Of a DNA stretch of 64,000 nt, positions 29,408-54,652 are shown piece after piece. The notes below the pieces were generated by a model. That model was not told the origin of the DNA, did no database searches, and saw nothing but the letters and a program-made list of their open reading frames with translations. Numbering within the stretch: position 1 is the first letter of the stretch; each line of letters opens with the position of its first letter. Source of the DNA: Micavibrio sp. (GTDB lineage Bacteria > Patescibacteriota > Minisyncoccia > Moranbacterales > GCA-2747515). The stretch covers positions 117,902-181,901 of the forward strand of contig DYDB01000001.1 in NCBI GenBank assembly GCA_020718085.1. The letters run 5' to 3'. The translations under genes were made by a program, and so were the position numbers.

Positions 29408-29670
29408 AATAGTCCTTGTGTACAGCTGTCGGCAAGTAGATTTAATAGTGCTCGTATAATGTCATTCTCGACTTCGATCAGGAATCTAGAAAATATTGCT
29501 ATAAATAATATTCTTCTGGATCTTCAGATTGAGTCTGTCTGCCGGTAAGGAGGGGTAACATATGATAAAAATGAGATGGTCTCTTATATTACGGAAAATC
29601 AAAAAAGCAGCGATTGCTCGCTGCTATTTGATTATTACAAGGATATTTTCATATCCTGTAAGAAGTCGTA

Positions 29671-39573: not shown

Positions 39574-39680
39574 GGAGTCATATTGACAGAGAAAGAAAAA
39601 AGTAGTATATTTGAGGGACGCTGGTGACTTCAAAGTTCACTGTAGATTCAGAGCGTAATTTTTATGTTTATTTCAAGACC

Positions 39681-39989
39681 ATGTTAGCAATCATCAAAAC
39701 AGGCGGAAAACAATACAAAGTTGCAGAAGGTGACAAGATCAAAGTGGAAAAGCTCGCTGGGGAAGTGGGTGATTCCATCAAATTTGACGAGGTGCTTTTT
39801 GTAGGTGATGAGAAAAAAGTAGAAGTTGGTACACCAACAATTGTCAAAGCTACAGTGGAAGGTAAGATCATCGACCAAGACCGTCATGATAAAGTATGGG
39901 GTATCAAATTTAAAGCAAAAAAACGTTTCAAACTGAAGTTTGGTCACAAACAGGCATATACAGAGATTGAGATCACAAAAATTGCATAA
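39681..39989 (+). CDS. rplU: 50S ribosomal protein L21
   Basis: MLAIIKTGGKQYKVAEGD...KFGHKQ; start at ATG 39681. Confidence 0.93.
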   Translation: MLAIIKTGGKQYKVAEGDKIKVEKLAGEVGDSIKFDEVLFVGDEKKVEVGTPTIVKATVEGKIIDQDRHDKVWGIKFKAKKRFKLKFGHKQAYTEIEITKIA

Positions 39990-40001
39990 AGAATTTTACA
40001 G

Positions 40002-40030
40002 CCACCTCGCTCAAGCGGGGTGGTTTTTGT
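40002..40030 (+). terminator. rho-independent terminator after rplU
   Basis: CCACCTCGCTCAAGCGGGGTGGTTTTTGT. Confidence 0.7.
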
Positions 40031-40061
40031 ATTGACAAAAAATCATAACCGTGGTAGAGTC

Positions 40062-40217
40062 TAGTCAAGTAAAAACGTCCCGTGAGGGACACTGTAAACC
40101 GAGTGGCATGATTGACGGATGAGCAACTTCTCATCCACACACATTTCTCTCCCAAGAGTGCCTCTCAACAACCAAACCCCTGTGTCGACTGATGTTGACA
40201 CAGGGGTTTTTCTTTTA
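40062..40217 (+). ncRNA. candidate small RNA (unknown family) with its own promoter and terminator
   Basis: TTGACA(40032)-N17-TAGAGT(40055) promoter; internal hairpins GTCCCGTGAGGGAC and GGATGAGCAACTTCTCATCC; ends in AAACCCCTGTGTCGACTGATGTTGACACAGGGGTTTTTCTTTTAT; no ORF. Confidence 0.35.
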
Positions 40218-40260
40218 TCCTGCAGACAGGCCAGGCGAAGTGGTAATTTAAAAGGCAGAC

Positions 40261-41409
40261 TCAATCATTGATCCTCCAGTGTGTTTCCCAGATCAATTGA
40301 GTTAGTTTTGCATATATTTTTTCAGCATGAAGGCGTGTTTCGAGAGGGATGGTTGCGAGTGATCGCATGGCAAAAATGAGCTCACGCGCACCTTTTTCGA
40401 TATCCGTAGGACTCCAACTGATCGGGGCGGTTTCGATGAGTTTTGCTCTCGTTGACCACCACCACGCACAACTTGCCATTCCGCGATCTGCATGTTTACG
40501 AGCCGATATGTAATTTTTATCATCTGCGTGTGCAGTAACTGTCTCAAGTGTGAAGAGAACAAATTTCCATAGGGATGTATGGATCACATTGTCACTGGCG
40601 TTCCAGAGTTTAAATGGATTTTGTTCATTTAATTCTTCTTCAAGTGATTCCCAACTCGCTTCTCGCGGTGTAATTATTTTTTCCTGCTTTAAACTATTCA
40701 TATACTCGGATATAGTTGACATGACAATTGCAGGGTCGGTAAATGCTTTTTTGTAATATCCATGATCATCTTTATGCCAATGTCCGTAAAGTTCACCATC
40801 ATGGGCGATGATAAGTGTTTGGCCATCGATTTCGTCGCGCTGTTCGATGATGGATTGGGGTGGAAATGATTTTGAGAATGATCTGTCTCGAAAAAGCACA
40901 CGTAGACCGTTATGCGCAATTACATAGCGAACAGAATTATCTGGTTTACATTTAGAAATGTGGATCTCATCTAAAATAGTCCATTCAAAGCCCAGTGAAT
41001 ATATAATATCTGCAACCTTTTTACTGTAAGCCATTTCAGGGATGTAAAAACCCTTTGGCTTGTACGCATTTCCAAAAATCCTCTGACTGATCTCCGTATG
41101 TAAAGTGATTTGCCGACGTATTTCTTCATCTGAAAAAAAAGTGAGAATTGGGTGATACATGGCACTGCCAACAAGTTCTATTCTACCCGTTTCTACGAAT
41201 TCACGATATTCATTCAGGATTTTGTGATATCCGTGTGCTTCCATCAATTCCAACAATGAACCGGAAAAGTTCATGGTTAATCGAAGATGTGGGTATTGCC
41301 TCATCAGTTGTGGAATAAACGCGTATGATTCTTTGACGATCTGATCCACGATCTCCTTCGTTTGTGTTGGCGGCTGATAAAGGTGTAAAAAATTTATCCA
41401 TGTGATCAT
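40261..41409 (-). CDS. glycoside hydrolase family 57 (alpha-glucan branching/amylase-like)
   Basis: N-terminal WINFLHLYQPP (GH57 HQP motif region), about 380 aa catalytic domain. Confidence 0.7.
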   Translation of the reverse strand: MITWINFLHLYQPPTQTKEIVDQIVKESYAFIPQLMRQYPHLRLTMNFSGSLLELMEAHGYHKILNEYREFVETGRIELVGSAMYHPILTFFSDEEIRRQITLHTEISQRIFGNAYKPKGFYIPEMAYSKKVADIIYSLGFEWTILDEIHISKCKPDNSVRYVIAHNGLRVLFRDRSFSKSFPPQSIIEQRDEIDGQTLIIAHDGELYGHWHKDDHGYYKKAFTDPAIVMSTISEYMNSLKQEKIITPREASWESLEEELNEQNPFKLWNASDNVIHTSLWKFVLFTLETVTAHADDKNYISARKHADRGMASCAWWWSTRAKLIETAPISWSPTDIEKGARELIFAMRSLATIPLETRLHAEKIYAKLTQLIWETHWRIND

Positions 41410-42971
41410 GTGTGTGGTGTATTACGTAATAACTTAGATTTTCTGATTCGTTCCTGATGGTTCTGTTTTTTGAGTTGGATCGTTACTAAATATAGATCAA
41501 CATATTTCTGGGCAGGAAGTCGCCATGAATTAGCCTCAGAGAGTCCAAAAATACACAGATCCCTCCATGCACGTTTATGTTTAAAATTCTCCAGAGCGCG
41601 AATAATGGCGATGAGCAGATCGGTTGCGTTGTAGCGGTCAAAAGAAAAGCCATTTCCTGTTCTTGTCTGTGGGTCGTAGTCTTCTATGGTATCGGCAAGG
41701 CCGCCAATGTGATGCACAACAGGAATGCATCCATACCGCAAAGCGATCATCTGATTGATGCCGCATGGTTCAAAGCGAGACGGCAAAAGAAATATTTCCG
41801 CTCCGGCATACAATAATGTTTCTTCCTCTTGGTTGAATTTAGTATACGCAACTTGTCCAGGGAATTCTTTTTGCAATTCCTGAAATGATCTGACAGTTTG
41901 ATTGTCACCGTCACCCATAATCAGAAATTGCACACCACGTTGAAGAACATCACGGATAATTTCAAAGATCAGTTTAAACCCTTTTTGTTCGCATATGCGT
42001 GACGTTGTGCATATGAGCGGAATTTCTACATCAACAAAAAGTCCATATCGCATTTGCAGAGCTTTCTTATTGTACTTTTTCAGCCTTACGGATTTGCTAC
42101 TGTAATGTCGAACTAATCCTGGGTCTGTTAGTGGGTTAAAATCATCGTAATCAATGCCATTTACTATACCGAATAAGATATTTTTTTTGCTCTTGAGAAG
42201 TTGATCGAGATCTTCTCCAAATGGTTTTTTGAGTATTTCCTCACGATATGTTTCAGATACTGCATTGATCGCGTCTGCATAGAGAATGGCGCGTTTTGCG
42301 AAATTCAGTCGTTCTATTTTCTTCGTATTTGCAAATAGGGGGAGTTTTGAATGCCCATCGTCGATGCCTTTGGGTGGGATAGTGAACCAATCATGGCCTA
42401 GCTGAAAGGATAAATTATGGATGGTAAAAAGTGTTGCTGTCTTGTCCCAAAACGGATCTTTCTTATAGCGAGTTTTCAAAAGAAAGGGGATCATTCCTGC
42501 ATGCCAGTCATGACAGTGGATGATCGTAGGTGTGAAATTGATCTTTTTCAAGAGAAAAAGTGTCGCAATGTTGAAAAATAGAAATCGTGCATTATCATTA
42601 TCTGCACCATAATATTTTTTATGTTGTCCAAAATACTTTTTATTTTCTATAAAATACACAGGCACCTTTTCAGTTCCAAGTAAACCTTTGCGATAGTAGA
42701 CTTTTTCAAAAACTCCCGGCTCCACTTCAATTTTTTCTACACCTCCGACACGATCAATCGTATAGGTGGCGGTGTCGATCAATTTTTCATAATACGGTGT
42801 AATGATAATGGTATCAATACCCAGATCCTGCTGTGCTCGTGGTAAAGATCCAAGTACACTGGCAAGTCCGCCAGTTTTTGAGAATGGATCTACTTCCGAT
42901 GCGATATGGGCAACGCGCATTTTGAGCATGTTCCGAATGGGATTTTTTTTCATAATGTGTGATACATGCAT
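41406..42971 (-). CDS. glgA: glycogen synthase (GT5); true start probably about 42917
   Basis: MRVAHIASEVDPFSKTGGLASV (KTGGL motif). Confidence 0.85.
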   Translation of the reverse strand: MHVSHIMKKNPIRNMLKMRVAHIASEVDPFSKTGGLASVLGSLPRAQQDLGIDTIIITPYYEKLIDTATYTIDRVGGVEKIEVEPGVFEKVYYRKGLLGTEKVPVYFIENKKYFGQHKKYYGADNDNARFLFFNIATLFLLKKINFTPTIIHCHDWHAGMIPFLLKTRYKKDPFWDKTATLFTIHNLSFQLGHDWFTIPPKGIDDGHSKLPLFANTKKIERLNFAKRAILYADAINAVSETYREEILKKPFGEDLDQLLKSKKNILFGIVNGIDYDDFNPLTDPGLVRHYSSKSVRLKKYNKKALQMRYGLFVDVEIPLICTTSRICEQKGFKLIFEIIRDVLQRGVQFLIMGDGDNQTVRSFQELQKEFPGQVAYTKFNQEEETLLYAGAEIFLLPSRFEPCGINQMIALRYGCIPVVHHIGGLADTIEDYDPQTRTGNGFSFDRYNATDLLIAIIRALENFKHKRAWRDLCIFGLSEANSWRLPAQKYVDLYLVTIQLKKQNHQERIRKSKLLRNTPHT

Positions 42972-43313
42972 CTTATAAATTATTTTAGACCGATAGAAAT
43001 TATATCTAAAAGTGTGAAGTTATAAAAGGGCCGTTTTTTGTTTTTGTGTACAAGTAGAGAAATAGGGTTAAACAAATTTTATGCAATAAAAAGATAAATT
43101 TGGCAAATGATAATATAGTAAGCTTAGCATTGTTTTTAACTAAAGTATATGGGTACATCTCATATGCTTTATATCTAAAATTATATTTCTGTATAATTCA
43201 TTGACATATTCTATTTAGCATGGTATTGTTCAAAGTCTTTTATTTGGATAATGTGTTTTTTTAATAACGGTCAGGTATTTTTGACGTAATCTTATGTAAA
43301 GAAGGAGGGGTAT

Positions 43314-43820
43314 ATGGTCAGAATTGATATTATCAGCTTTGAACGTGAAACTGTAAATATCGGGCGCAGAGTATTGGAAATATTGCGCAAAATAGGCAAA
43401 GGTGAAAGCGATGTAACGGTTTTGGCACTTCCGCATAAAACGGAAGAAAATACAGAACCATATATCAAAATGGTCTGTGTTGAGTTGTCTCCAGTTATGG
43501 AGATTCTTTCTGCATTTAGGCAAGAAAAATATTTCCAGAATGTGTGTATTATTGCCGGCTCCATCTGTGGCATGAGGATTTCCGCATCAGAATTTGATCA
43601 AAAAATATCTGATATTGAGACCGCATGGAATAAAGGGCCACGATATGGTGTATCTGACAAGGTTCAATGTCATGGTCTTCCCGGTACTATCAAAGAAAGA
43701 CAGTTGATATACCACAATCGAGGCGAAACGTGGACATGGGGATATGACGTTGAATGGGACAAAGAAAAACCCAGTATTTCACTTGTATATCTGCCGGAAG
43801 GATATTTGCAAGATGCATAA
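43314..43820 (+). CDS. hypothetical protein (cassette A)
   Basis: 168 aa; RBS GAAGGAGGGG upstream; promoter-like TTGACA at 43203. Confidence 0.5.
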   Translation: MVRIDIISFERETVNIGRRVLEILRKIGKGESDVTVLALPHKTEENTEPYIKMVCVELSPVMEILSAFRQEKYFQNVCIIAGSICGMRISASEFDQKISDIETAWNKGPRYGVSDKVQCHGLPGTIKERQLIYHNRGETWTWGYDVEWDKEKPSISLVYLPEGYLQDA

Positions 43821-43847
43821 AGCAGTTTAGTCGGTGAAAAGATCGAC

Positions 43848-43889
43848 AAAACGACCCGCTTATAATAAGCAGGGTCGTTTTCTTTTTCC
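43848..43889 (+). terminator. terminator, member of conserved AAAACGACCC...GGGTCGTTT family
   Basis: AAAACGACCCGCTTATAATAAGCAGGGTCGTTTTCTTTTTCC. Confidence 0.75.
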
Positions 43890-43903
43890 TTATAAAAATC
43901 ACT

Positions 43904-43951
43904 GTCATCCCGCCACTACGCCTGCCTGCCGGTAGGCAGGGTCGGGATGAC
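43904..43951. repeat. hairpin repeat, CATCC...GGATG family (copy 0)
   Basis: TGTCATCCCGCCACTACGCCTGCCTGCCGGTAGGCAGGGTCGGGATGACA; shares CTGCCTG.CCGGTAGG core with copies at 46331 and 47150. Confidence 0.6.
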
Positions 43952-44018
43952 AAAAAAATCGTGTGATTGTTTATAGTTGTAGCTGTTTTTAGTTTTCAGA
44001 TTGTTTGACGCGATACTA

Positions 44019-44048
44019 TTGACAAAAACACAAAATTAATGTATAGTG
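44019..44048 (+). promoter_or_regulatory. sigma70-type promoter for cassette B
   Basis: TTGACA-N18-TATAGT. Confidence 0.6.
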
Positions 44049-44108
44049 GCAAGTTGGGTTTTTTAACAGAAGACAGCAAGTAATCACAAAAACACATTGA
44101 GGAGGATG

Positions 44109-44783
44109 GTCATGGTAGAGGACATTTTTTCTGGTGAAGTGATGGGAAGTCCTGCTTTTCCGAAAAAGGGTTTTTTGAACGCATGGGACAAGAGGGATTG
44201 GGGAATCAAAGTCCTGGAAGAGTACGTGAGGAAAATTCATGGACGTACGATCTCCGCCTATGACAACGGCAACAGGCAGGGTCGTTTGACCGGAATAAAA
44301 GCGTTTGTTCAGCTGGGTGAAAAACTGATCACATACGCCCTGATCGAGCCCAAAAAAAAGCAGGACCAGGTTCTGATCGTGCGCACAGAGTCGCATGTTG
44401 ATGAGCTCTCTACTGTCGAGTGCCTACCGTCCGAGAATGATAGTGTCAACACACTCGCAAGTGCGTTCACAAAAGCAAAGATCGATCCAGATCAGCTCAG
44501 GCAGGAACTTCCTTCCAAAGATGAGCTGATGGTTGTGGAGATCAATCACAATCGTAAAACCAACTCACTGGGAATTGCACCACAATATCTGGATGAGGAT
44601 CCTTTGTTGAGCGGTCAGAAATCCATGCGCGTTTTTTATCCCGTTTCGGTTAATGGTGAGCTGCAGATTGGCCAAAAATGGCGCTGTCGGCAGACAAAAA
44701 AACCTGTCGTTGCCGGTGCAAACAAGCATGGCGTCCCGATGATTCACATCAATGTGGAGCTCATGCGGGCCATGGCAGCTTAG
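44109..44783 (+). CDS. hypothetical protein (cassette B)
   Basis: Start at ATG after GAGGAGG; about 224 aa; higher GC than neighbours; no motif. Confidence 0.5.
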   Translation, partial: VMVEDIFSGEVMGSPAFPKKGFLNAWDKRDWGIKVLEEYVRKIHGRTISAYDNGNRQGRLTGIKAFVQLGEKLITYALIEPKKKQDQVLIVRTESHVDELSTVECLPSENDSVNTLASAFTKAKIDPDQLRQELPSKDELMVVEINHNRKTNSLGIAPQYLDEDPLLSGQKSMRVFYPVSVNGELQIGQKWRCRQTKKPVVAGANKHGVPMIHINVELMRAMAA

Positions 44784-45026
44784 ACAAAATTTCCACAAAG
44801 GAAAAATATACGACTCAGTCATCCGATGATGATTGGGTCGTATTTATTTTTGCAAATCGTATGTAATTGTAGGGTCTTTGCGAGAAACGGAGCAAAGCGT
44901 AGTGACGAAGCAATCTCAATTGATGTATGAGAAATTGCATATGTGAGATGGCTTCGTTGCCACACTCCTTCCGTCAGAAGTAAGACAAGTGTAAAGCTGT
45001 CAAAAAAGTGAACATTTTATACTGCA

Positions 45027-45054
45027 TTGACTATAAATATGTAGAGGATATAAT
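45027..45054 (+). promoter_or_regulatory. sigma70-type promoter for cassette C
   Basis: TTGACT-N16-TATAAT. Confidence 0.55.
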
Positions 45055-45113
45055 ATACGGAAATAGTATTATTAACAACAATATAATAAAAAATATCTGA
45101 AAAAGGAGCGAAG

Positions 45114-45392
45114 ATGTTTTCATCACAGAATATTATAATTCTCTGTATTTTTATCGGTCTTTTGCTCATTACGGCAGGAGCCATGTTCTATCTGGGTATG
45201 TGTTATGGCAAGGAGGAAGAAAAAGATGGATGGCATAAAAAATTTTTAAAAGATGTGGTCAAATCACAATCAAAAAAATGGGTGTGTACAGTTCTCATCA
45301 CATACCGCAAAGATTCAGATGTTGTACCCGATATCAACGTGGCCATCGGAAGCATGAAACCGGCTGATCCTGCATCCGATGGCAAAAAGTAA
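45114..45392 (+). CDS. small membrane protein (cassette C)
   Basis: 92 aa, one N-terminal TM; RBS AAGGAG. Confidence 0.5.
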   Translation: MFSSQNIIILCIFIGLLLITAGAMFYLGMCYGKEEEKDGWHKKFLKDVVKSQSKKWVCTVLITYRKDSDVVPDINVAIGSMKPADPASDGKK

Positions 45393-45436
45393 TATCAAAC
45401 CGCATATCAGATTTTTTTCAACAGATCTATTTTGCA

Positions 45437-45480
45437 AAACGACCCGATCACATAATGTGAGAGGGTCGTTTAATTTTTTT
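45437..45480 (+). terminator. conserved-family terminator (copy 1)
   Basis: AAAACGACCCGATCACATAATGTGAGAGGGTCGTTTAATTTTTTT. Confidence 0.75.
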
Positions 45481-45503
45481 ATAACAGTGGGACTTATGTG
45501 TTT

Positions 45504-45593
45504 GTCATCCTGAGCGAAGTCGAAGGATCTTAAAATGCAAAAAATACGATGGAGTGCCGTTGTAGGAGATTCCTCCACTTCGGTCGGAATGAC
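45504..45593. repeat. imperfect hairpin repeat GTCATCCTGAGCGAAGTCGAAGGATC ... TTCCTCCACTTCGGTCGGAATGAC
   Basis: 26 nt left arm nearly identical (24/26) to inverted copy at 51913-51938; right arm partially complementary. Confidence 0.6.
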
Positions 45594-45633
45594 ATAGACT
45601 CTCATATCGTAAGATGTATTAAAAAGTCGATAA

Positions 45634-45662
45634 TTGACAAGCGGTTGTAAAAATAGTACAAT
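45634..45662 (+). promoter_or_regulatory. sigma70-type promoter for cassette D
   Basis: TTGACA-N17-TACAAT. Confidence 0.55.
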
Positions 45663-45728
45663 GGTGAGTCTTTGGTCATTTAAAAAAGTATTTCTACAAA
45701 CAACGCTATATATTGTGGAGGTTCAAAA

Positions 45729-46235
45729 ATGGAATTGAAAGAGGGTCTCGTGTTAGTCCTTGATGATGGGAGTTATTCTTATGAATTAGAAAAAGATTTT
45801 GTCGCTTTTGCGGCAGATGAGCGATTGATCCATTATGCGTGCATGGCCGCGCGACCGGGATTTGAAGAATTATCAGCAAAGCTTGAACATACACATTACA
45901 AACCACTGACAGTGCGAAATGAGCTCATGAGTGTACGAGCGTTGTTGTGGAATGACATCACGTGGTTCGTGATCAGTATACCATCCAAAGAAAAACATCT
46001 TTTGGAGGATATGGCCGGAACGTATGGCATGCGAGTCGCCAACGGTGTTCCGATGATGTTCGGACATAATTGCCGTATGCATTTTCCGATACGCGGTAAA
46101 AATGTCTTTACATTGGAAAACGTGGCTGGCCATCCGGTGTATCGCAACGACGCTGCCATTAATTGTGCAATGCAACAAGCAGAGCGTGAGGCTGCGGAGA
46201 ACATCAGAGCCGACAAAGAACAAAAGCCAAGTTAA
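45729..46235 (+). CDS. hypothetical protein (cassette D)
   Basis: 168 aa; RBS GGAGG; no motif. Confidence 0.5.
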   Translation: MELKEGLVLVLDDGSYSYELEKDFVAFAADERLIHYACMAARPGFEELSAKLEHTHYKPLTVRNELMSVRALLWNDITWFVISIPSKEKHLLEDMAGTYGMRVANGVPMMFGHNCRMHFPIRGKNVFTLENVAGHPVYRNDAAINCAMQQAEREAAENIRADKEQKPS

Positions 46236-46279
46236 AAACCCACCAGCAGAAAATCTGCTTCGGTGGGTTTTCTGTTTTT
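46235..46279 (+). terminator. rho-independent terminator
   Basis: AAAAACCCACCAGCAGAAAATCTGCTTCGGTGGGTTTTCTGTTTTT. Confidence 0.75.
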
Positions 46280-46330
46280 ACAATATGATAAATAGAGGAT
46301 AATTACGAAAACTTAAAAAATCACATATGT

Positions 46331-46388
46331 CCCCATCCCTATGGGAGAGTCTGCCTGTCCTGCAGGGATGGGTTGGGGTGAGGGAAGT
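46331..46388. repeat. hairpin plus G-quadruplex-motif repeat (copy 1)
   Basis: CCCCATCCCTATGGGAGAGTCTGCCTGTCCTGCAGGGATGGGTTGGGGTGAGGGAAGT; contains GGG-AT-GGG-TT-GGGG-TGA-GGG. Confidence 0.65.
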
Positions 46389-46417
46389 TGAAAAGGGTTA
46401 GACATTATCGGCATGTA

Positions 46418-46446
46418 TTGACAATATATCAAAAATGTTCTATAAT
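46418..46446 (+). promoter_or_regulatory. consensus sigma70 promoter for cassette E
   Basis: TTGACA-N17-TATAAT exact consensus hexamers. Confidence 0.65.
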
Positions 46447-46514
46447 GTCCAGATGCTTAATAGTGAGCGGAATCTCGTTTCTTTACAATATCAACTTGAA
46501 TAAGGGGTGAAAAT

Positions 46515-47075
46515 ATGAAAAAAGGCGATATCATCATCAAAAGTACCAATCGTGGATACATGTCAATGAACTTTTGGGCAGTGTTATGGTGCGTTGGTTT
46601 TTATTTCATCGCCAGATGGGCGGATCTATATATGGAAGATGATTATATGAGTTATAGATTGTTTCCATGGCCGCCTCTCTGTGTGTATGGTTCGTATGTG
46701 GTAATGGGTATTATTGCAGTGGTTAATATATATACTATTATTTACTCTGCTAAAGAGGTGGGAATCATCTCATACGGGGAAAATGGTTTTTTGGAAAAAC
46801 TTTCTGCTTGGTCATATGGTTTTCCATTTTCCAAGCGAACCGTAGATTTACCATTCAATCGCATTATTGAAATTGAAGTCTCGCAAGGAAGCATTGACCG
46901 TTTGCTCAATACCGGTTCGCTGACTGTAAAATTCATTACATTTGCGAATGCAGAGACCTTGGAGAAAAAGTGGACATTTCCTGCGATCTGCGCTCCAGTA
47001 GCGAGAAAAAAAGAGATTGAAGAAGCCATAGCAGACCATGAGGGCCTGCTGGTCAAGTTGAAAACAGAGCAGTAA
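46515..47075 (+). CDS. bacterial PH-domain membrane protein (bPH_2/YdbS-like, DUF304) (cassette E)
   Basis: Two N-terminal TM helices followed by VDLPFNRIIEIEVSQGSIDRLLNTGSLTVKF, the characteristic bPH_2 core. Confidence 0.6.
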   Translation: MKKGDIIIKSTNRGYMSMNFWAVLWCVGFYFIARWADLYMEDDYMSYRLFPWPPLCVYGSYVVMGIIAVVNIYTIIYSAKEVGIISYGENGFLEKLSAWSYGFPFSKRTVDLPFNRIIEIEVSQGSIDRLLNTGSLTVKFITFANAETLEKKWTFPAICAPVARKKEIEEAIADHEGLLVKLKTEQ

Positions 47076-47106
47076 AATATCACTGCTCAAAAAAGAGAAA
47101 AGATCT

Positions 47107-47144
47107 CAAATCATAATGGTTTGAGATCTTTTTACTTTATGTAA
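47107..47144 (+). terminator. rho-independent terminator
   Basis: AAAAGATCTCAAATCATAATGGTTTGAGATCTTTTTAC. Confidence 0.7.
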
Positions 47145-47149
47145 AAAAA

Positions 47150-47210
47150 GCCCCTTCTCCCTATGGGAGAGCATGTCTGTCCGGTAGGGATGGGTTGGGA
47201 TGAGGGAAGT
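47150..47210. repeat. hairpin plus G-quadruplex-motif repeat (copy 2)
   Basis: CCCCTTCTCCCTATGGGAGAGCATGTCTGTCCGGTAGGGATGGGTTGGGATGAGGGAAGT. Confidence 0.65.
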
Positions 47211-47238
47211 CGAATTCGTTCGGATAGGATCAAAGAAA

Positions 47239-47268
47239 TTGACAAAAATAGAAATTTATGATATAATG
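47239..47268 (+). promoter_or_regulatory. consensus sigma70 promoter for cassette F
   Basis: TTGACA-N18-TATAAT. Confidence 0.65.
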
Positions 47269-47331
47269 GTCATTCAGAAAAACTCTGATTTTTATTATTT
47301 AAAAACCACCATAAGATAAAGGAGAGAAAAG

Positions 47332-47850
47332 ATGAAGAAGGTAATGATCAATACAAGCATTGTATGTGCAGCGATTATTATTTTATTTGGAGGAACTGGA
47401 ATTGTTTTTTTGAAGATCATGTGTAGCGACAAGATTTCTACGGAAATGCTTGTTGATATACACAATGATCCGTTCAAATTCCCACTGTGGGAAATGACAA
47501 AAAAAGATCTTCAAAAAGAAATACCGGCGATGTCAGGAAAAAATCTCGGAAAACTAATTCAGAACATGAACCAGTTTGCACGAGAACTATCGTCGAATGA
47601 GATCGTTAAGCGAATTTCTGCTTACAGTTCGGGAGATGTCATAACTTTAGGCAATGAAATCAATCGAATGGATGTTTGGGAGGTGCTAATCGCCAAAGAA
47701 ATATCTCCCAGAATTAAAGATCTTGATGCAATGGATCTTCATAGCTTGTCAAAAACTCCTTTGAGAGATTTGGCAATTGCTGAGATTCGTTATCGCATTA
47801 GCAACAGCACATTGGATCAGAAATTTCTTCAAATGTGCATGATAGATTGA
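47332..47850 (+). CDS. hypothetical secreted/membrane-anchored protein (cassette F)
   Basis: 172 aa; N-terminal signal/TM; low GC; RBS AGGAGAG. Confidence 0.5.
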   Translation: MKKVMINTSIVCAAIIILFGGTGIVFLKIMCSDKISTEMLVDIHNDPFKFPLWEMTKKDLQKEIPAMSGKNLGKLIQNMNQFARELSSNEIVKRISAYSSGDVITLGNEINRMDVWEVLIAKEISPRIKDLDAMDLHSLSKTPLRDLAIAEIRYRISNSTLDQKFLQMCMID

Positions 47851-47868
47851 AGAGCACTTCATTTTATC

Positions 47869-47912
47869 AAAACGACCCGATCACATAACTGTGGTTGGGT
47901 CGTTTAAATTTT
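47869..47912 (+). terminator. conserved-family terminator (copy 2)
   Basis: AAAACGACCCGATCACATAACTGTGGTTGGGTCGTTTAAATTTT. Confidence 0.75.
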
Positions 47913-48046
47913 AATAATATTATTAATGTGATAATAAGTATTTTGAACTTGTGTACCATGTTTGAACTTTTTATACAAAAACGAGGATATTCGACCACTT
48001 TAGATCGCGAATCAGAAAACCTAAAAAATCATCTATATATCAACAA

Positions 48047-48172
48047 ACCCCCTCTCCCTATGGGAGAGGGTTGGGGTGAGGGAATTAGTAAATTGTGCAA
48101 GAATGGCATATTTTTTGTGTATGAGAAATGTTATATCCCTCACCTCAGTCCTCTCCCATAGTGAGAGGAGGC
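48047..48172. repeat. G-rich repeat copy 3 (48047-48084) with diverged inverted partner (48135-48172) forming a large hairpin
   Basis: AACCCCCTCTCCCTATGGGAGAGGGTTGGGGTGAGGGAATT ... ATCCCTCACCTCAGTCCTCTCCCATAGTGAGAGGAGGC. Confidence 0.6.
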
Positions 48173-48197
48173 AATATTTTATTGGCAGGTTGGATAT

Positions 48198-48226
48198 TTG
48201 ACAAATCCAATATAATGGTATATAAT
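48198..48226 (+). promoter_or_regulatory. consensus sigma70 promoter for cassette G/H
   Basis: TTGACA-N17-TATAAT. Confidence 0.6.
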
Positions 48227-48259
48227 GCGAATTTGACGTGGTGTCAATTTATGAATTAA

Positions 48260-48757
48260 TTGTTCGTTGTCAAATTTTACTCAGGAGTGTATATGAAAGC
48301 TAAATATCTGCAATACTGCGTGTTATTGGCAATCTCATGTTTTATTATGGGAATTCATTCTATCGCTTGCGCCGATGATTTTAAAGCTATGTTGGCGCCA
48401 GCACCAGATCAAGAGATCTCTGTGAGAGGGCATCTGGAAAAGGATGGTAAAAAAATGATCGTGGAATATGTTTTTGATTTCCACAATCCTGATCAGCGCA
48501 ATCGTTCTCAAAAGATTTTTGATGACGTTTATCTCAGGTTGCTACGAAATAATTGGAAGCAATCGTTGAGTTTTAATGTCACTTTAGCCGACTATTATGT
48601 TTCGCTGACCTATGTATTCGAGAAGTCACCAAAACAATTGGCAGGCATTATGGTGGAGCGGTGTCAAAAAGGTGACATTAAAGAAAAGCAGATACTATTG
48701 CAATATGGTGCTAATGCCGCGGAACACGTAGTTTCAGCACTAGATAGTGTTAAGTAA
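48260..48757 (+). CDS. hypothetical secreted protein (cassette G)
   Basis: Signal peptide MKAKYLQYCVLLAISCFIMGIHSIACADD; 165 aa; no motif. Confidence 0.5.
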   Translation: MFVVKFYSGVYMKAKYLQYCVLLAISCFIMGIHSIACADDFKAMLAPAPDQEISVRGHLEKDGKKMIVEYVFDFHNPDQRNRSQKIFDDVYLRLLRNNWKQSLSFNVTLADYYVSLTYVFEKSPKQLAGIMVERCQKGDIKEKQILLQYGANAAEHVVSALDSVK

Positions 48758-48778
48758 TCATAGTACGTAATTCAACGG

Positions 48779-49198
48779 GTGAATTACGCTTCACAGCATC
48801 GCTCTTATAATGAGGGCACAGCACCGGAGGTAATGACAATGGAAAATTCAGTAAAGATCGAACAGGCAGAAGGTGATTTTCAAGTTCATGCACAATTATC
48901 TAGCGAATTGCTTAGCAACATTGATGACTTAAAGGCGCTATTAAATCAATCCTTGAGTCGGAACAACATACATGCGTGCATGTGTAGATTCAATGATGTT
49001 GTCGTATTTTCATCCTCTAATTTTGGGGGATGGTCAGAGAAGACGGCGCAGATCGTGTTTGGGAAAGTGGTTGAATGTTTACCGGTTTATGAACTGAGCA
49101 TAAAGCTGACCAAACGGAAAAGACAGGTTCGGGATGCACTGAACAAGTGCACTGATCCTACACTCATCGAAGAGATCGGACGCCTGTTAAGAGTCTAA
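48779..49198 (+). CDS. hypothetical protein (cassette H), co-transcribed with G
   Basis: 139 aa; start may be internal Met; no terminator between G and H. Confidence 0.45.
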   Translation: MNYASQHRSYNEGTAPEVMTMENSVKIEQAEGDFQVHAQLSSELLSNIDDLKALLNQSLSRNNIHACMCRFNDVVVFSSSNFGGWSEKTAQIVFGKVVECLPVYELSIKLTKRKRQVRDALNKCTDPTLIEEIGRLLRV

Positions 49199-49211
49199 TG
49201 ACTCACCAACG

Positions 49212-49255
49212 AACAACCCAATCACATAATGTGGCTGGGTCGTTTAATTTTTATT
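49212..49255 (+). terminator. conserved-family terminator (copy 3)
   Basis: AACAACCCAATCACATAATGTGGCTGGGTCGTTTAATTTTTATT. Confidence 0.7.
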
Positions 49256-49445
49256 GGACGATAAAATGCGAAAAATACGTAGTTGGCTCTATCGGAGGAA
49301 ATCCGAACTATTTTATGTAATTTATAGAAAATATTGTCAATTTCTGGTATACTTCAGCTATAAAAGTAAAGAGGTTTACTTTACTATATTGTATGATATT
49401 ATATTGTGTTACAATGCGATACATAGACATTAATTAGATGGTGAT

Positions 49446-49784
49446 ATGAGAATAGAAAATGGAAAAATTGAGGGAGATTTAATAGTTGATACAGGTATAG
49501 ATTTGCGCGGAATGGTCACTGGTAATGTTTTTGTAACGAATGGTTCAAATTTTATACTGCACGGTCAGGTGTGTGGAGATTTGATAATTGAAGATGATGC
49601 TAATGTTATGATATTTGGGCAAGTCGTTGGAGACGTTATCAATAATGGGAATAAACTTGAAGTCATGGGAGTAATTTCTGGATCTCTGATAAACAACTCT
49701 AGAAAATCAAAAATAGCATCAAGCGCAAGTATCGGTAAATTTATCGAATATGACAAAAAAATTCAATCCATTTGTACCACATAG
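49446..49784 (+). CDS. bactofilin-like beta-helical repeat protein (cassette I)
   Basis: 112 aa; repeated G-x-V/I-x-G-D/N-V/I units (GMVTGNVFV, GQVCGDLII, GQVVGDVIN, GVISGSLIN) resembling the bactofilin/CcmA DUF583 beta-helix. Confidence 0.45.
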   Translation: MRIENGKIEGDLIVDTGIDLRGMVTGNVFVTNGSNFILHGQVCGDLIIEDDANVMIFGQVVGDVINNGNKLEVMGVISGSLINNSRKSKIASSASIGKFIEYDKKIQSICTT

Positions 49785-51009
49785 TCCTGTTTATAATGAC
49801 ATGTTTGCTGGTAGAATGACGGAAATAGAACATATAGATAATGCATTATATCAAGCAAAGAAAGGAAATCCGACACATATAATGTTGACTGGCGAAAGAG
49901 GCATTGGTAAAACTTCTCTGCTTTTGTTAGCCAAATTCTTTGCAAATGGAGAAATTATTTATGATGATGCTTCGCATAATTTTCTGACTGTGCAAGTAAC
50001 GTTGACGAACAAAATGTCCATTGTTGATCTTGCTGTTTCTCTAAAAAAGAACATTAAACGTGAAATTGATAAACGAGATCCTGACAGCGCATTGATAAAA
50101 AAATGTTGGAATTATTTTTTAAAAATAGAAGCTTGTGGATTAGCTTTTAGGGGAGATAAAAGTGAGGAAACTACGTTTCAAAAAGATCAAGTAGTAGATG
50201 AATTTATATACGCATTAGTTGATACAGTAAAGAATGTCACGGGTGATTCATTAGCAACAGACATGGGATTGAAAAGTCCATTGGATGGCCTGGTGGTGTT
50301 AATTGATGAGGCAGATAATGCAAATGCGGATTTGGATCTCGGTGTATTTTTAAAGAAGGTTAACGAAACTCTTGTATCAGAGAGGTGTAATAATGTAATG
50401 TTTTTACTAGCAGGGTTGCCTAATCTACATGAGGTGTTAAGCAAAAGTCACGAATCATCTTTAAGATTATTTAAAAATTATAATTTGGATCCACTTACAA
50501 GAGCTGAGGTAACACAAGTAATGAAAAGTGGATTGAGCGAGTATTATGATGAGACTGGTGAAAAAGTTACAATTGATGACGATGCATTAAGACTCATATA
50601 TCTATATTCTGAAGGCTATCCTCATTTTGTCCAGCAAATTGGTCATTCAATATTTGAAAATTTAAAAGGAAATAAAATTATAGAAACTGATGTACGAAAA
50701 AGCTTTTTAGGAAAAAATGGTGCATTGAAACTTATTGGTGATCGATATTATTATAAGATTTTTTACATTGATATAAAAACAGATGTTCAGAGAAAAATAT
50801 TATCGATTATGGCAGAAAATTGGGATGAATGGGTGGATAGAGATTTTATTAAAAGGCGTTACAAAGGTAAAGTGGCAACATTAGATAGTGGATTAAAATC
50901 ACTGAGAGAAAAAAATATCATCTTATCTCGCAAAGGTAAGAGGGGTCAGTATAGGTTACAATGGGCAAGCTTTGCTTTTTGGATAAAAAAACATAAAGAA
51001 ATGCAGTAA
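49750..51009 (+). CDS. AAA+ ATPase, archaeal-ATPase/AAA_16-like, with C-terminal winged-helix-like region (cassette J)
   Basis: IMLTGERGIGKTSLL Walker A, VVLIDEADNA Walker B; N-terminal NPFVP..P....FAGR..E pattern of ATPase_2/AAA_16 proteins; 35-nt overlap with upstream gene; GC clearly lower than flanks. Confidence 0.6.
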   Translation: MTKKFNPFVPHSPVYNDMFAGRMTEIEHIDNALYQAKKGNPTHIMLTGERGIGKTSLLLLAKFFANGEIIYDDASHNFLTVQVTLTNKMSIVDLAVSLKKNIKREIDKRDPDSALIKKCWNYFLKIEACGLAFRGDKSEETTFQKDQVVDEFIYALVDTVKNVTGDSLATDMGLKSPLDGLVVLIDEADNANADLDLGVFLKKVNETLVSERCNNVMFLLAGLPNLHEVLSKSHESSLRLFKNYNLDPLTRAEVTQVMKSGLSEYYDETGEKVTIDDDALRLIYLYSEGYPHFVQQIGHSIFENLKGNKIIETDVRKSFLGKNGALKLIGDRYYYKIFYIDIKTDVQRKILSIMAENWDEWVDRDFIKRRYKGKVATLDSGLKSLREKNIILSRKGKRGQYRLQWASFAFWIKKHKEMQ

Positions 51010-51275
51010 GTAAAAATCTTGCATTTTTCCTTCATTCGAATACTATATTAGTCATAATTATATAGTATGTTTTACAATCCTAATAAGTTATGCGAAGAAG
51101 CACTTATCGATATATTCCAGATAATGAAGTAAATTCGAAAAGTGCAACAATTAAAGCAGAAAAATAAATTCTGTTTTCTTATTCGTGATTATGAATATAG
51201 CTATTTGAAGAAAAATTAAACTCTTCTTCAAAACAAAAAAACGTTCCGAAAGGATAGGTTGATAGGATTCGAACT

Positions 51276-51866
51276 CTATGAAATCTTCTCACGATTGTTA
51301 ATCGCACTACGAATTGTCATGTCGTCTGCATATTCAATATCCGAGCCTGTGGCGAGTCCACGCACAAGTCGTGAAATGTGAATATCTTTATTTGCACGCA
51401 CGAACATATCTTGTAAATACATTGCTGTCAGATCTCCTTCTGTGGTGAAATTGGTCGCGATAATGATCTCTGTGAAACCATTTTGTAGCACTCTCTTGAG
51501 AAGTGGTTCGATTGAGAGGTGATGCGTGTCCTGTTTTTTGATCGTGCCACCGAGGACGTGATACATGCCATTGTATGCACGAGATCGTTCGATCGGGAGA
51601 ATGTCCAACGATTCTTCCACAATGCATAACTGCGTATGATCACGCGAAGAATCTGCACAGATCTTGCATTGGTCACTTTCAGCGATATTGAAACACGTTT
51701 TGCATGATGTGATGTCTTTGATGCGGAGCAGGTCACGTGCAAAATCATCTATGCGATCTGAACTGTTTTTGTACAGATGAAGCACGAGTCGTTCCGCCAT
51801 TTTGGGACCGATGCCTGGGAGACTGTTGAAATGATCGATCAATTTTTGAAATGATGAGGGGTACAT
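51276..51866 (-). CDS. recR: recombination protein RecR
   Basis: HhH (LPGIGPKMAERL), C4 zinc finger (CKTCFNIAESDQCKIC), Toprim domain. Confidence 0.92.
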   Translation of the reverse strand: MYPSSFQKLIDHFNSLPGIGPKMAERLVLHLYKNSSDRIDDFARDLLRIKDITSCKTCFNIAESDQCKICADSSRDHTQLCIVEESLDILPIERSRAYNGMYHVLGGTIKKQDTHHLSIEPLLKRVLQNGFTEIIIATNFTTEGDLTAMYLQDMFVRANKDIHISRLVRGLATGSDIEYADDMTIRSAINNREKIS

Positions 51867-51912
51867 TTTTATTAATGAATAATTAATAATGAAAAATGAT
51901 ATTTACATGTGA

Positions 51913-51938
51913 GATCTTTCGACTTCGCTCAAGATGAC
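51913..51938. repeat. inverted copy of the GTCATCCTGAGCGAAGTCGAAGGATC repeat
   Basis: GATCTTTCGACTTCGCTCAAGATGAC is the reverse complement of 45504-45529 with 2 mismatches. Confidence 0.6.
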
Positions 51939-51986
51939 ACGCTCTTTTGTAAACTGTAAATTGAGAATTGAAAATTATTGCACATG

Positions 51987-53336
51987 TTATTCGTGGTGTT
52001 GCATCATGTGGTGTTTTTCGAGACTTTTGTATGATGCGGCTTCTTCGTGGAAGTAGAGTTGTTTGGAACCTACTGGGCCGTTACGGTGTTTAGCGATGAT
52101 GATCTCTGCAACCCCTTTATTTTCTGTGTCGGGATTGACGCGGTCTTCACGATAGATGAACATAACCACGTCAGCATCCTGCTCGATGGATCCGGATTCA
52201 CGAAGGTCGGAGAGTTTTGGACGTTGATCGGGACGTGATTCTACAGCACGGGACAACTGGGAGAGTGCAACGATTGGGATATTTAATTCTTTGGCGAGCA
52301 TTTTGAGACCGCGGGAAATTTCGGAGATCTCTTGTACGCGGTTTTCATTGCCTCTGCCTTCCATAAGCTGGAGGTAGTCGATGATGATGAGTCCCAGATT
52401 ATGTTCTGCCTGGAGACGACGTGCCATTGTGCGCATTTCCATGATATTGGCACTTGAGGTGTCATCGATGAAGATCGGTGCTTCGGACAGTGTGCCCATT
52501 GCTTCGTTGATTTTGGTAAAATCAGAATCCTTGAGATTGCCGGTGCGAAGTCGCCAGAGGTCGAGATTGGACTCAGCGGCGATCATACGATCGACCAACT
52601 GGTCCGCGGACATTTCCAGTGAGAAGATGCCCACAGGAATGCGTGCGAGCGTGCCTACTTGGCGTGCGATATCAAGCGCGAGCGATGTCTTACCGACAGA
52701 TGGACGGGCAGCGAGGATGATGAGATCGGATTTTTGCAGTCCGGAAAGAAGATCATCCAAATCAGGAAATCCCGTAGGTACACCGCGCATGACGCCTTTA
52801 TTTTTATGTAGATCATCCAAACGATCAAATGCCTCACCCAAAATTGTTTTGATGGAGGTGAATTCTTGCTTGAGTGATTTTTGAGAAACGCTGAAGATCT
52901 TTTGTTCCGCATCATCCAAAACCTTTTCAATATCTTCCGCTTCATTGTAGCCAAGTTCATTGATCTCTGACGCAACGCCGATGAGACGTCGCAATACGGA
53001 TTTTTTTTGAATGATCTTTGCATAGTACGTGATATTGGATGCGCTAGTGACACCACGTACAAGAGAGGCGAGATAGGATGCACCACCGATCGACTCGATG
53101 CGCTTTGTTTCTTCGAGCGCATTGGAAAGACTGAGCACATCGATGGGATCATTGTGTTCGTAGAGTTTGAGCATCGCATCATAAATGACATTGTGGGCTT
53201 CTTTGTAAAAATCACCAACGCCAATCGTATCTGCAATTTTTGTGATCGCGTCTTTGTCGACCATGAGGGCGCCAAGAACGGTTTTTTCTGCTTCCATCGC
53301 ATGCGGGGGCATGCGTGTGTCTGTATTTTCTGCCAT
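51987..53336 (-). CDS. dnaB: replicative DNA helicase DnaB
   Basis: N-terminal PHAMEAEKTVLGALM; RecA-like domain with ARPSVGKTSLAL Walker A and IIIDYLQLM. Confidence 0.93.
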   Translation of the reverse strand: MAENTDTRMPPHAMEAEKTVLGALMVDKDAITKIADTIGVGDFYKEAHNVIYDAMLKLYEHNDPIDVLSLSNALEETKRIESIGGASYLASLVRGVTSASNITYYAKIIQKKSVLRRLIGVASEINELGYNEAEDIEKVLDDAEQKIFSVSQKSLKQEFTSIKTILGEAFDRLDDLHKNKGVMRGVPTGFPDLDDLLSGLQKSDLIILAARPSVGKTSLALDIARQVGTLARIPVGIFSLEMSADQLVDRMIAAESNLDLWRLRTGNLKDSDFTKINEAMGTLSEAPIFIDDTSSANIMEMRTMARRLQAEHNLGLIIIDYLQLMEGRGNENRVQEISEISRGLKMLAKELNIPIVALSQLSRAVESRPDQRPKLSDLRESGSIEQDADVVMFIYREDRVNPDTENKGVAEIIIAKHRNGPVGSKQLYFHEEAASYKSLEKHHMMQHHE

Positions 53337-54231: not shown

Positions 54232-54591
54232 GGAAGTTCGTCGGATGACAGCTCTACGGAGAGGAAAGTCCGGACACCTGCACGCCTTTGGCGTGTATAA
54301 CGGTAGTGGGTAATACCCACCTAGAGTGATCTACGAGGTGCGAGCAGTGACGCATAGAACCGCAAGGTTGTATGACCCAGTTTCTCTTTGAGACGGGGAT
54401 ATGCTCATAGTAATATGAGAGTGAAACGGCTAAATCTTTACCAAGGTGCAAGATCGTGTCACGCACCCAAAAACACCAAAGTTTTTTGATGTTCTTGGGT
54501 GCGTGAAGAATCGCAAAGACGCATATGGCAACATAGGCGCAAGACAGATTGTCATCTTCAACGACAGAATCCGGCTTACAGATGATCTTCC
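54232..54591 (+). ncRNA. rnpB: RNase P RNA (bacterial type A)
   Basis: P4 strands GAGAGGAAAGTCCGGACACC (5-prime) and ACAGAATCCGGCTTACAG (3-prime) match universally conserved RNase P RNA sequences; GGAAG...CTTCC P1 pairing; TATAAT at about 54199. Confidence 0.85.
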
Positions 54592-54652
54592 AATAATGCA
54601 AATGAACAAGTATATATAATTATGATCGATATTTGATAGAATATTTATTTTT

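Follow-up and report, generated by a model that had tools for sequence, protein, structure and literature searches.

A probable flexible islet of self-punctuated accessory genes between rplU and recR in a Moranbacteria-like Patescibacterium

The 64-kb stretch of DNA analyzed here (hereafter the window, taken from a contig of 388,850 bp) harbors ten open reading frames (ORFs A to J), all on the + strand at 43.3-51.0 kb, between glgA (41406-42971, - strand) and recR (51276-51866, - strand). A preliminary description of the locus had seen about ten unrelated small ORFs arranged head-to-tail, and this is borne out, with no paralogy detected among the ten. Judging from its sequence, the organism, a small uncultured bacterium also represented by contigs of groundwater metagenomes, is a Moranbacteria-like Patescibacterium, i.e., a member of the candidate phyla radiation (CPR), and the relatives of its recR carry Moraniibacteriota or Patescibacteria names. 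The analysis suggests that the array belongs to an interval, bounded by rplU and recR, which is probably a flexible genomic islet of independent accessory units. The segment 33314-53306 is reproduced by three independent contigs (L149, L081 and L150) at 99.4-99.9% identity with an unchanged gene order, and their agreement rules out an assembly chimera or artefact. The relatives compared are a close one, the 77-kb contig L156, whose ClpB, DUF5656, HtrA, L21, recR and DnaB are 93-99% identical to those of the window (by amino acid (aa) identity rplU 96%, recR 95% and ClpB 98%), and two at middle distance, L141 (recR 82%) and L145 (recR 69%, rplU 82%).

The left flank of the interval is rplU (39624-39989, + strand), whose product, L21, matches the Pfam Ribosomal_L21p model in the gene table of L149; the right flank is recR, encoding the Pfam RecR domains, together with dnaB (51987-53336). 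Between rplU and the array lies a first variable segment on the - strand (40043-43198), with a small RNA (sRNA)-like unit (40032-40216), a GH57 gene (40261-41409) and glgA. In the rplU-GH57 gap, this unit begins with a promoter-like TTGACA-N17-TAGAGT (40032-40060), from which some 110 structured nucleotides lead to a strong T-run hairpin (40174-40216); it may represent an sRNA gene or, for GH57, a bidirectional terminator, has no Rfam match and is absent from L156.

The start codons of the array ORFs are backed by ribosome-binding sites, and A-G, I and J have exact matches in protein collections. Searches of Pfam, PADLOC, PHROGs and NCBIfam with A, B, C, D, F, G and H return no match. ORF A (43314-43820; 168 aa, with a GGAGG ribosome-binding site) is thus without a family assignment. 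ORF B (44112-44783; 223 aa) has five homologues at 48-81% identity, and its structure model is poor (predicted local distance difference test (pLDDT) of 52) and unfit for structure search; the homologue in L157, at 50% identity, occurs alone at a different locus, upstream of rpsL. ORF C (45114-45392; 92 aa) begins with a hydrophobic segment, and E, F and G likewise have hydrophobic segments, N-terminal or internal. ORF D (45729-46235; 168 aa) belongs to a large uncharacterized family of 130-230 aa (492 representative clusters at E<=1e-3), with the near-invariant residues R42, G44, E53, P59, N64, W74, P85, G106, P108, F119 and P120; the family profile finds no match in the PDB, and a Pfam scan detects GNAT acetyltransferase domains in 1 of 42 aligned members. 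ORF E (46515-47075; 186 aa) is indeed the bPH_2 membrane protein noticed earlier (Pfam, 2.6e-6, 28 bits against a cut-off of 22). ORF F (47332-47850; 172 aa, hydrophobic at the N-terminus) and ORF G (48293-48757; 154 aa, with a signal-peptide-like N-terminus) are, like E, not found in L156. ORF H (48839-49198; 119 aa) follows a conserved leader (48764-48838). ORF I (49446-49784; 112 aa) contains a weak bactofilin-like repeat, and its Pfam Bactofilin match (2.7e-4, 21.6 bits) falls below the 27.9-bit cut-off, which qualifies the previous bactofilin-like label.

ORF J (49750-51009; 419 aa) was correctly recognized as an AAA+ ATPase (Pfam AAA_16/AAA_22), and within the array it alone draws weak PADLOC, PHROGs and NCBIfam matches. 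Residues G48, G51, K54, D186 and E187 are invariant in 44 homologues. Its structure model (pLDDT 86.6) finds its best solved folds in the archaeal Orc1/Cdc6 proteins 2qby_A (2.5e-9), 1w5t and 2v1u, bound to origin DNA, and then in TnsC and RFC; a weak match is also seen to an archaeal virus protein annotated as Orc1/Cdc6. By its predicted fold J is an Orc1/Cdc6-like AAA+ ATPase, sharing with the archaeal proteins a Walker A (GERGIGKTS), a Walker B (LIDEAD) and a C-terminal winged helix. However, it is only 11-14% identical to them, with TM-scores of 0.4-0.5, scores close to theirs are also reached by TnsC, clamp loaders and STAND ATPases, and the repeat finder identified no origin repeats. Of the more than 500 homologues (44-60% identity), some bear the source names Patescibacteria, Omnitrophota or Lokiarchaeota; elsewhere each stands as a single gene among housekeeping ones, with I missing, and no direct repeats were found flanking them in other genomes.

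In composition, the G+C content of B is 48.5%, of F 36.8%, of I 33.9% and of J 32.5%, so that the earlier figures are right; at third codon positions (GC3), however, only B (0.54, the window's highest) and I and J (0.27 and 0.24, the window's lowest) stand at the extremes of the window's genes, which are mostly at 0.33-0.46. Signs of horizontal origin, namely atypical composition and patchy distribution, are found for I-J alone, and J probably arrived by horizontal transfer.

Promoter-like sites were scored out of 12 against the sigma-70 consensus TTGACA-N16-18-TATAAT. On the + strand of the array, P_A (43201-43229; 10/12, with a TG-extended -10) lies inside a block aligned with L156, P_B (44019-44047) scores 11/12, and 12/12 in L156, P_C (45027-45054; 16-nt spacer) and P_D (45634-45662; kept in L156) both score 11/12, and P_E (46418-46446), P_F (47239-47267; with TG) and P_G (48198-48226) all score 12/12. 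The claim of a near-perfect promoter for nearly every unit thereby stands for six units, whose 11-12/12 predicted promoters are conserved in L156, with A at 10/12, but not for I, with a weak match (9/12), or for H, which lacks one of its own. The promoter that H has in L156 (TTGACA-N17-TATAAT, just upstream of the leader) is replaced in the window by the 3' end of G. Sites with at most one mismatch number 10 in the 64 kb against about 1.0 expected, and 5 of the 10 fall within 44.0-48.2 kb. Between G and H there is neither a terminator nor a promoter, and I and J overlap by 35 nt; hence both pairs are predicted to be bicistronic, giving eight transcription units rather than ten single-gene cassettes throughout, as had been proposed.

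Seven hairpins with T-runs, beginning immediately to about 45 nt past the stop codons, form strong predicted terminators on the + strand (-14.5 to -24.8 kcal/mol; z -3.3 to -8.1 against shuffled sequences), although J has no obvious one; the preliminary description had placed a rho-independent terminator after nearly every unit. Three of them, T3 (45437-45471; -21.2 kcal/mol, z -6.6), T6 (47870-47905; -24.8 kcal/mol, z -8.1) and T7 (49211-49245; -14.5 kcal/mol, z -3.3), constitute a strict family (the T family), in which a 2x2 internal loop separates the 9-bp outer stem from an inner stem of 5 bp (TCACA/TGTGA) closed by a TAA loop. T1 (43848-43881; -19.0 kcal/mol, z -6.4) has the outer stem AAAACGACCC/GGGTCGTTTT in common with them and a loop of its own, which accounts for the previous count of four same-family terminators, and T2 (44808-44843; -22.5 kcal/mol, z -6.0), also sharing the outer stem, is a looser member with an ACGACYC/GGGTCGT stem. 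T4 (46236-46270; -20.7 kcal/mol, z -5.8) and T5 (47097-47133; -22 kcal/mol, z -7.5) are unrelated hairpins. T1, T2 and T4 are kept in L156.

In L156 both C and H are followed by copies of the strict family; other copies adjoin recR in L141 (96% identity to T3 over 48 nt) and L145, lie upstream of the L157 homologue of B, and are found in the unrelated 29%-GC contig L088. Over eight distinct copies, pairing is retained in 98% of cells as against 30-46% in slid controls, with compensatory double changes in 3 of 14 pairs; five G-U cells are valid on the sense strand only. This pattern fits a recycled hairpin acting as a transcription terminator of the + strand genes. In a metagenome-wide scan an 18-mer of the terminator gave 59 matches, about the chance expectation, with the full hairpin in L088 only, and a viral scan with it gave no match. 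Rfam returned nothing at gathering score on the array, and chance-level matches only at E<=1.

Along the array the order of terminator, hairpin repeat and promoter recurs from gap to gap. As previously described, a hairpin or G-rich repeat stands between a terminator and the next promoter in 6/7 gaps, with a remnant in the seventh. The first three of these separators are palindromic: S1 (43903-43952; -34.4 kcal/mol, z -7.8) is a GTCATCCCG...CGGGATGAC hairpin, S2 (44877-44984; -39.4 kcal/mol, z -3.7) an element of about 108 nt (...GTGACGAAGCAATCTC...GAGATGGCTTCGTTGCCAC...), and S3 (45503-45594; -39 kcal/mol, z -5.6) a GTCATCCTGAGCGAAGTCGAAGGATC...GATTCCTCCACTTCGGTCGGAATGAC palindrome with a core like that of the element S7 described below. 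The 26-mer GTCATCCTGAGCGAAGTCGAAGGATC of S3 (45503-45529) recurs unchanged, in several copies per contig, in the viral contigs L279-L281, which have 58-64% GC. Further half-elements of the GTCATYC type lie outside the array at 29461-29486, after the fusA terminator, and at 51912-51945 on the - strand, between dnaB and recR. A sequence-based search of the searchable literature found no description of this GTCATCC palindrome family. REP/BIME and Correia elements are families of miniature palindromic intergenic repeats, and S1-S3 resemble these and similar repeats in being 50-110-nt palindromes placed after terminators and present or absent among relatives; they differ in that members of the GTCATCC family retain their nucleotide sequence in DNA of very different composition, 40% GC here and 58-64% GC in the viral contigs. 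A separate 182-nt element between rpsG and a DUF1189 gene (26005-26186), with 23-nt terminal inverted repeats (TAAGTAACTGTCTAAATATCTCA...TGAGATATTAGACAGTTACTAAG), resembles a miniature inverted-repeat element of another family.

The G-rich separators S4, S5 and S6 are, by sequence, instances of a published intrastrand triplex motif (TM; in E. coli TMECO, earlier 'PIT'). S4 (46331-46392, + strand) is a variant with a 20-nt insert, 88% identical over 57 nt to S5 (47150-47214, + strand), itself a variant, whereas S6 (48048-48171) joins a canonical copy (48048-48084) to an inverted one (48137-48171) in a long hairpin (-67.7 kcal/mol, z -8.3). The canonical copy reads CCCTCTCCCTATGGGAGAGGGTTGGGGTGAGGG and contains the succession that defines the motif, CCCTCKCCC, a short loop, GGGAGAGGG, 2 nt and GGGGTGAGGG; it matches E. 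coli TM sequences listed by Holder et al. 2015 (PMC4666352), which read, e.g., CCCTCTCCCTGTGGGAGAGGGCCGGGGTGAGGGC. The motif has been recorded from more than 260 genomes, frequently in inverted pairs, and loci bearing it show more rearrangement between strains than do control loci (PMC4666352); it has also been interpreted as a G-quadruplex-hairpin-duplex switch (bioRxiv 10.1101/032615). The copies in the window are comparable to those of E. coli in being intergenic, in forming a tandem inverted pair and in lying in DNA that differs between relatives. They depart from them in residing in a 40%-GC Patescibacterium, in the 20-nt insert of two copies, and in that the triplex is here predicted from sequence alone. 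They occupy three consecutive junctions, in four copies if the inverted one is counted, and the rest of the 64 kb showed no further copy.

The 21-mer GGGAGAGGGTTGGGGTGAGGG of S6 is present exactly in at least 120 viral contigs (L159-L278) of 32-74% GC, and most of the listed viral copies are preceded by the upstream arm CCCTCTCCC and a loop of 4-6 nt. Such nucleotide-level identity across so different genomes is striking, and the published triplex work offers no mechanism for it. In the groundwater assembly ERZ909603 a contig break falls at 48275-48401, close to P_G and to the two inverted triplex-motif copies; the adjoining contigs have an overlap of 127 nt, which agrees with the window. The separators are not punctuation specific to this locus, and they differ between the window and L156 at the same junctions, so that their turnover is fast. 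In 314 kb of related DNA a model of the recycled terminator matches only this locus, which speaks against a generic genome-wide element.

A third kind of repeat, S7, is a 28-nt element (AGTTGG...GTTCGAAC) lying 30-50 nt past each strict terminator, with which it forms a composite of about 100 nt (T+S7) that can be aligned across the window, L156, L157, L141, L145 and L088. Within 314 kb of related DNA, a covariance model of the composite (R1) finds matches only at this locus, in L088 and, upstream of the B homologue, in L157, with no match on L158, a more distant Moraniibacteriota genome; T7 lies within a composite scoring 100 bits, and T6, followed by a degenerate S7-like stretch, is matched at 47867-47971 with 82.3 bits. 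In the window the order is T7, S7a (49281-49308, + strand; 28 nt, AGTTGGCTCTATCGGAGGAAATCCGAAC), I-J, S7b (51257-51274, + strand; a short copy, GGTTGATAGGATTCGAAC, abutting the recR stop codon) and recR, such that the two copies delimit I-J on the left and right. The short copy is found at the recR stop codon also in L141, L145 and L156. L141 and L145 have an empty site, where terminator and S7 are followed directly by recR; it looks as if I-J had either been inserted at S7 here or been lost from the relatives by deletion between S7 copies.

In reverse complement, the L141 copy of S7 (GTTCGAATCC-TAC-CAGCCCA-A-CCA) has by eye the spacing of T-loop, stem, acceptor and CCA of a tRNA 3' end, the candidate sequence being GTTCGAATCCTACCAGCCCAACCA. 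Rfam gives no tRNA match for S7, and ARAGORN no tRNA gene in the window, L141, L156 or L157. A role as the chromosomal dif site was rejected, as the GC skew is uniformly positive over the window and gene orientation shows no global switch. In L088, from another organism of 29% GC, positions 1-2540 carry T+S7 after an unrelated 124-aa ORF and a second S7 411 nt further on, and an rve-type transposase gene flanks this stretch with one half on either side. In L156, positions 10960-11210, between H and an Mrr-like gene, comprise a promoter (TTGACA-N17-TATACT) leading into some 190 structured nucleotides and a terminator, the whole flanked by S7 copies; this unit, which has no Rfam match, is possibly a small RNA cassette.

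Alignment of the window with L156 yields a series of colinear blocks. These are 39900-40042 (L156 3861-4004), the end of rplU; 43199-43885 (5701-6382), with P_A, A and T1; 43953-44849 (6518-7417), with P_B, B and T2; 45026-45479 (7447-7900), with P_C, C and T3; 45604-46235 (9262-9890), with P_D and D; 46237-46324 (10166-10254), with T4; 48764-49295 (10348-10882), with the H leader, H, T7 and the start of S7; and from 51263 onward (16040 onward), recR. The homology on the left thus stops just past the rplU terminator. Between the blocks the contents differ: GH57-glgA stands against a 472-aa Fib_succ_major/fn3 gene in L156; S1 against a different GTCATCC half-element; 176 nt with S2, which L156 lacks, against 29 nt; the 124-nt S3 gap against 1361 nt holding a 178-aa gene on the other strand; nothing against a 77-aa ORF between D and T4; S4 through G (2439 nt, with E, F and G) against 93 nt; and the 1967 nt of I-J against 5157 nt with the sRNA-like unit and three genes (Mrr_cat, one of 180 aa, and HSDR_N). 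The Mrr-like nuclease at this recR-proximal junction matches Mrr-type nuclease models of PADLOC (8e-23). With block ends at 40042, 43885, 44849, 45479, 46235/46324, 48764 and 49295, 6/7 junctions fall between a terminator and the next promoter.

In L145 both flanks are kept, with a hexokinase, in place of GH57-glgA, and five small ORFs without Pfam matches between them, and in L141 recR-dnaB is kept while yet other ORFs adjoin recR. E, F, G, I and J have no counterpart at the locus in any relative compared. Hence, rplU and recR are the conserved flanks and glgA-GH57 is part of the variable content, in disagreement with the preliminary description, which had taken glgA as backbone. A genome scan with glgA found a single moderately close relative: this closest glgA in a species genome, at 70% identity in the Candidatus Moraniibacteriota metagenome-assembled genome L001, has no recR nearby and no synteny, which again argues that glgA is not backbone. 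In L158, hisS and other housekeeping genes follow recR; hence, the hot spot is a feature of a sub-lineage.

The same comparison shows that the array is not freely shuffled. In L156 the five ORFs A, B, C, D and H follow one another as in the window, with aa identities of 78%, 73%, 81% (over 73 aa), 82% and 67%, respectively, and ratios of nonsynonymous to synonymous divergence (dN/dS) of 0.13, 0.13, 0.12, 0.21 and 0.28, as against 0.01-0.08 in the flanking genes. They are fast-evolving genes under purifying selection, and A-D and H look vertically inherited. The view of a hypervariable locus is therefore upheld insofar as the content varies between conserved flanks (the gene content and order are not identical in L156, L141 and L145, while recR-dnaB is kept), but not with respect to these five genes, and mosaic payloads in free exchange do not agree with them. 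The dS of A, B and C (1.1-1.3) lies above that of the flanking genes (0.3-0.9), which may reflect exchange with more distant lineages or weaker codon constraint.

Taken as a flexible islet of independent accessory units, the rplU-recR interval would be organized as follows. In each unit an ORF with its ribosome-binding site stands between a near-consensus sigma-70 promoter and a strong intrinsic terminator, by which the unit would be insulated from its neighbors; whole units would be gained, lost or replaced in the gaps from terminator to promoter. These gaps hold repeats of three kinds, the pan-bacterial TM/PIT motif, the widespread GTCATCC...GGATGAC palindromes and the lineage-restricted T+S7 composite, and the structure-prone repeats and S7 may promote the rearrangements. 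This putative role is suggested by the association of TM with unstable E. coli loci, by the bracketing of the low-GC I-J by S7, and by the empty site in two relatives. Breakpoints may be seen in these gaps in part because only insertions there would leave the neighboring genes expressed.

We consider this reading probable, and flexible genomic islands and islets at chromosomal hot spots are an established concept of bacterial comparative genomics. The interval resembles them in its core flanks enclosing differing content (rplU and recR-dnaB in L156 and L145, recR-dnaB in L141), in its mostly unannotated variable genes, in I-J as compositional outliers, in the restriction-type genes at the same site in L156, and in the short repeats at one insertion boundary. 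It differs from typical flexible islands in its small size of about 11 kb, in its single-gene units with a near-consensus promoter and a strong terminator, in the vertical inheritance of A-D and H, and in that no integrase, intact tRNA or mobility genes are seen here. On hypervariable islands of CPR bacteria, a literature search turned up no specific account.

Several observations weigh against the islet. The breakpoint at 48763/48764 lies between a promoter and a leader and another between the D stop codon and T4, such that the terminator-to-promoter rule is not absolute. The near-identical contigs L149, L081 and L150 show no variation at all, which places the observed turnover between species rather than within a population. 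The comparison comprises one close relative and two at middle distance, and the repeats were surveyed in the 64 kb of the contig. Attachment-type repeats, in the form of S7a and S7b bracketing I-J, come without an integrase: Pfam detects no IntI, integrase, recombinase or transposase domain in the ten array proteins, in 30 other ORFs of the window or in the gene tables of L149 and L081. Further, the similarity of S7a and S7b is short and gapped, the pair being unreported by the repeat finder, the tRNA likeness of S7 is by eye, with nothing from Rfam or ARAGORN, and a causal role of the TM and GTCATCC repeats in rearrangement is putative.

The alternative that survives best, which we nevertheless regard as unlikely, is that nothing special happens here, i.e., that these are lineage-specific, fast-evolving monocistronic genes undergoing ordinary divergence, their promoters and terminators being those usual in this organism and the repeats passive passengers in the sole intergenic DNA of any size. 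Outside the array, near-consensus promoters are also seen ahead of rplU, of the gene at 53407 and of others; a looser terminator, AAAACGACC...GGTCGTTT, stands at 32138, and palindromic repeats lie at 26005-26186, 29461 and 51912. The unchanged gene order in the near-identical contigs and the housekeeping genes after recR in the distant L158 point in the same direction. However, seven separate replacements within about 12 kb relative to L156, whose flanking proteins are 93-99% identical, are not readily accommodated by ordinary divergence, nor are the confinement of the strict T+S7 family to this locus and the concentration of TM copies at three consecutive junctions of the window.

It is also doubtful that units of promoter, gene and terminator are captured as cassettes, with T+S7 (or S7 alone) as the recombination site of a recombinase encoded elsewhere. 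Such a system would resemble an integron or the Xer-dependent pdif modules, with cassettes that bear promoters. S7 brackets I-J in the window, the sRNA-like unit and the Mrr...HSDR_N genes in L156, and a small ORF unit in L088; L141 and L145 offer empty sites; and T+S7, confined to these loci, precedes unrelated genes in five lineages, including the B homologue directly after it at a different locus in L157. Against these points stand the lack of any recombinase in the window, the conserved order of A-D and H in L156, the repeats other than S7 at most junctions, the short and gapped S7 similarity, the J homologues elsewhere without flanking repeats, and the few cases, with no circular intermediates seen and no within-population variation. 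The pdif modules of Acinetobacter plasmids are Xer-dependent, and some elements integrate at dif without a recombinase of their own. The present locus is comparable to them in its small gene modules, 28-nt repeats and lack of its own recombinase; unlike theirs, the S7 copies are direct rather than alternately inverted, with no evident dif-like sequence and no switch in GC skew, and the likeness is one of resemblance only. With a tRNA likeness seen by eye, an S7 pair missed by the repeat finder and no recombinase, a site-specific mechanism is a minority hypothesis. If true, some Patescibacteria would possess self-expressing cassettes whose 3' punctuation doubles as an attachment site.

The proposal of an undescribed accessory or defence-type system, i.e., a single multi-gene accessory or anti-phage system with separately transcribed components, fares much worse and is very improbable. 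J is a P-loop ATPase weakly resembling STAND-type and BREX BrxC/D ATPase models, all below threshold, and an Mrr-like nuclease lies at the same junction in L156. However, none of the ten proteins has a PADLOC match at E<0.01 (the best lie at 0.012-0.06), and joint inheritance of the components is not seen, with B by itself in L157, J homologues alone in housekeeping contexts, and I not conserved with J. This lack of co-occurrence largely refutes the single-system reading, and the array genes do not form one system.

As background for the weakest alternative, integrons carry an adjacent gene for the tyrosine recombinase IntI together with attI and the Pc promoter, attC sites are imperfect palindromes of 55-140 nt with RYYYAAC and GTTRRRY cores, and integron cassettes are promoterless. 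An integron-type array (or an attC cluster without its integrase), or a decayed prophage or integrative element, can practically be dismissed, as the preliminary description had already surmised, for although unrelated single genes are arranged head-to-tail with variable content and a hairpin after each ORF, and a tRNA-3'-end-like fragment adjoins recR, the locus has no IntI, attI or attC, no tyrosine recombinase, no integrase or transposase domain in any scanned ORF and no phage structural or replication family (PHROGs matches being confined to J), its hairpins are nearly perfect 34-37-nt T-run terminators with ends AAAACGACCC...GGGTCGTTTAAT and without RYYYAAC/GTTRRRY cores, its units have their own promoters, and its order is largely kept in L156.

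Beyond the interval, RNase P RNA of bacterial class A is found at 54233-54594 (106 bits), just downstream of an SdrD_B-domain gene.

The flexible islet between rplU and recR thus reveals no new defence system, and is a fairly ordinary genome hot spot. Its interest lies in that the Patescibacteria have tiny genomes and their acquisition of accessory genes is little understood, for which this locus offers a clean and small example: a fixed interval turns over whole genes predicted to be self-expressing, including restriction-type genes in a relative. Additionally, it extends the association of the triplex motif with variable loci to a distant phylum, and presents T+S7 as a lineage-specific candidate insertion site. 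The near-consensus promoters and the terminator family may also serve as annotation landmarks for expression signals in such uncultured bacteria.

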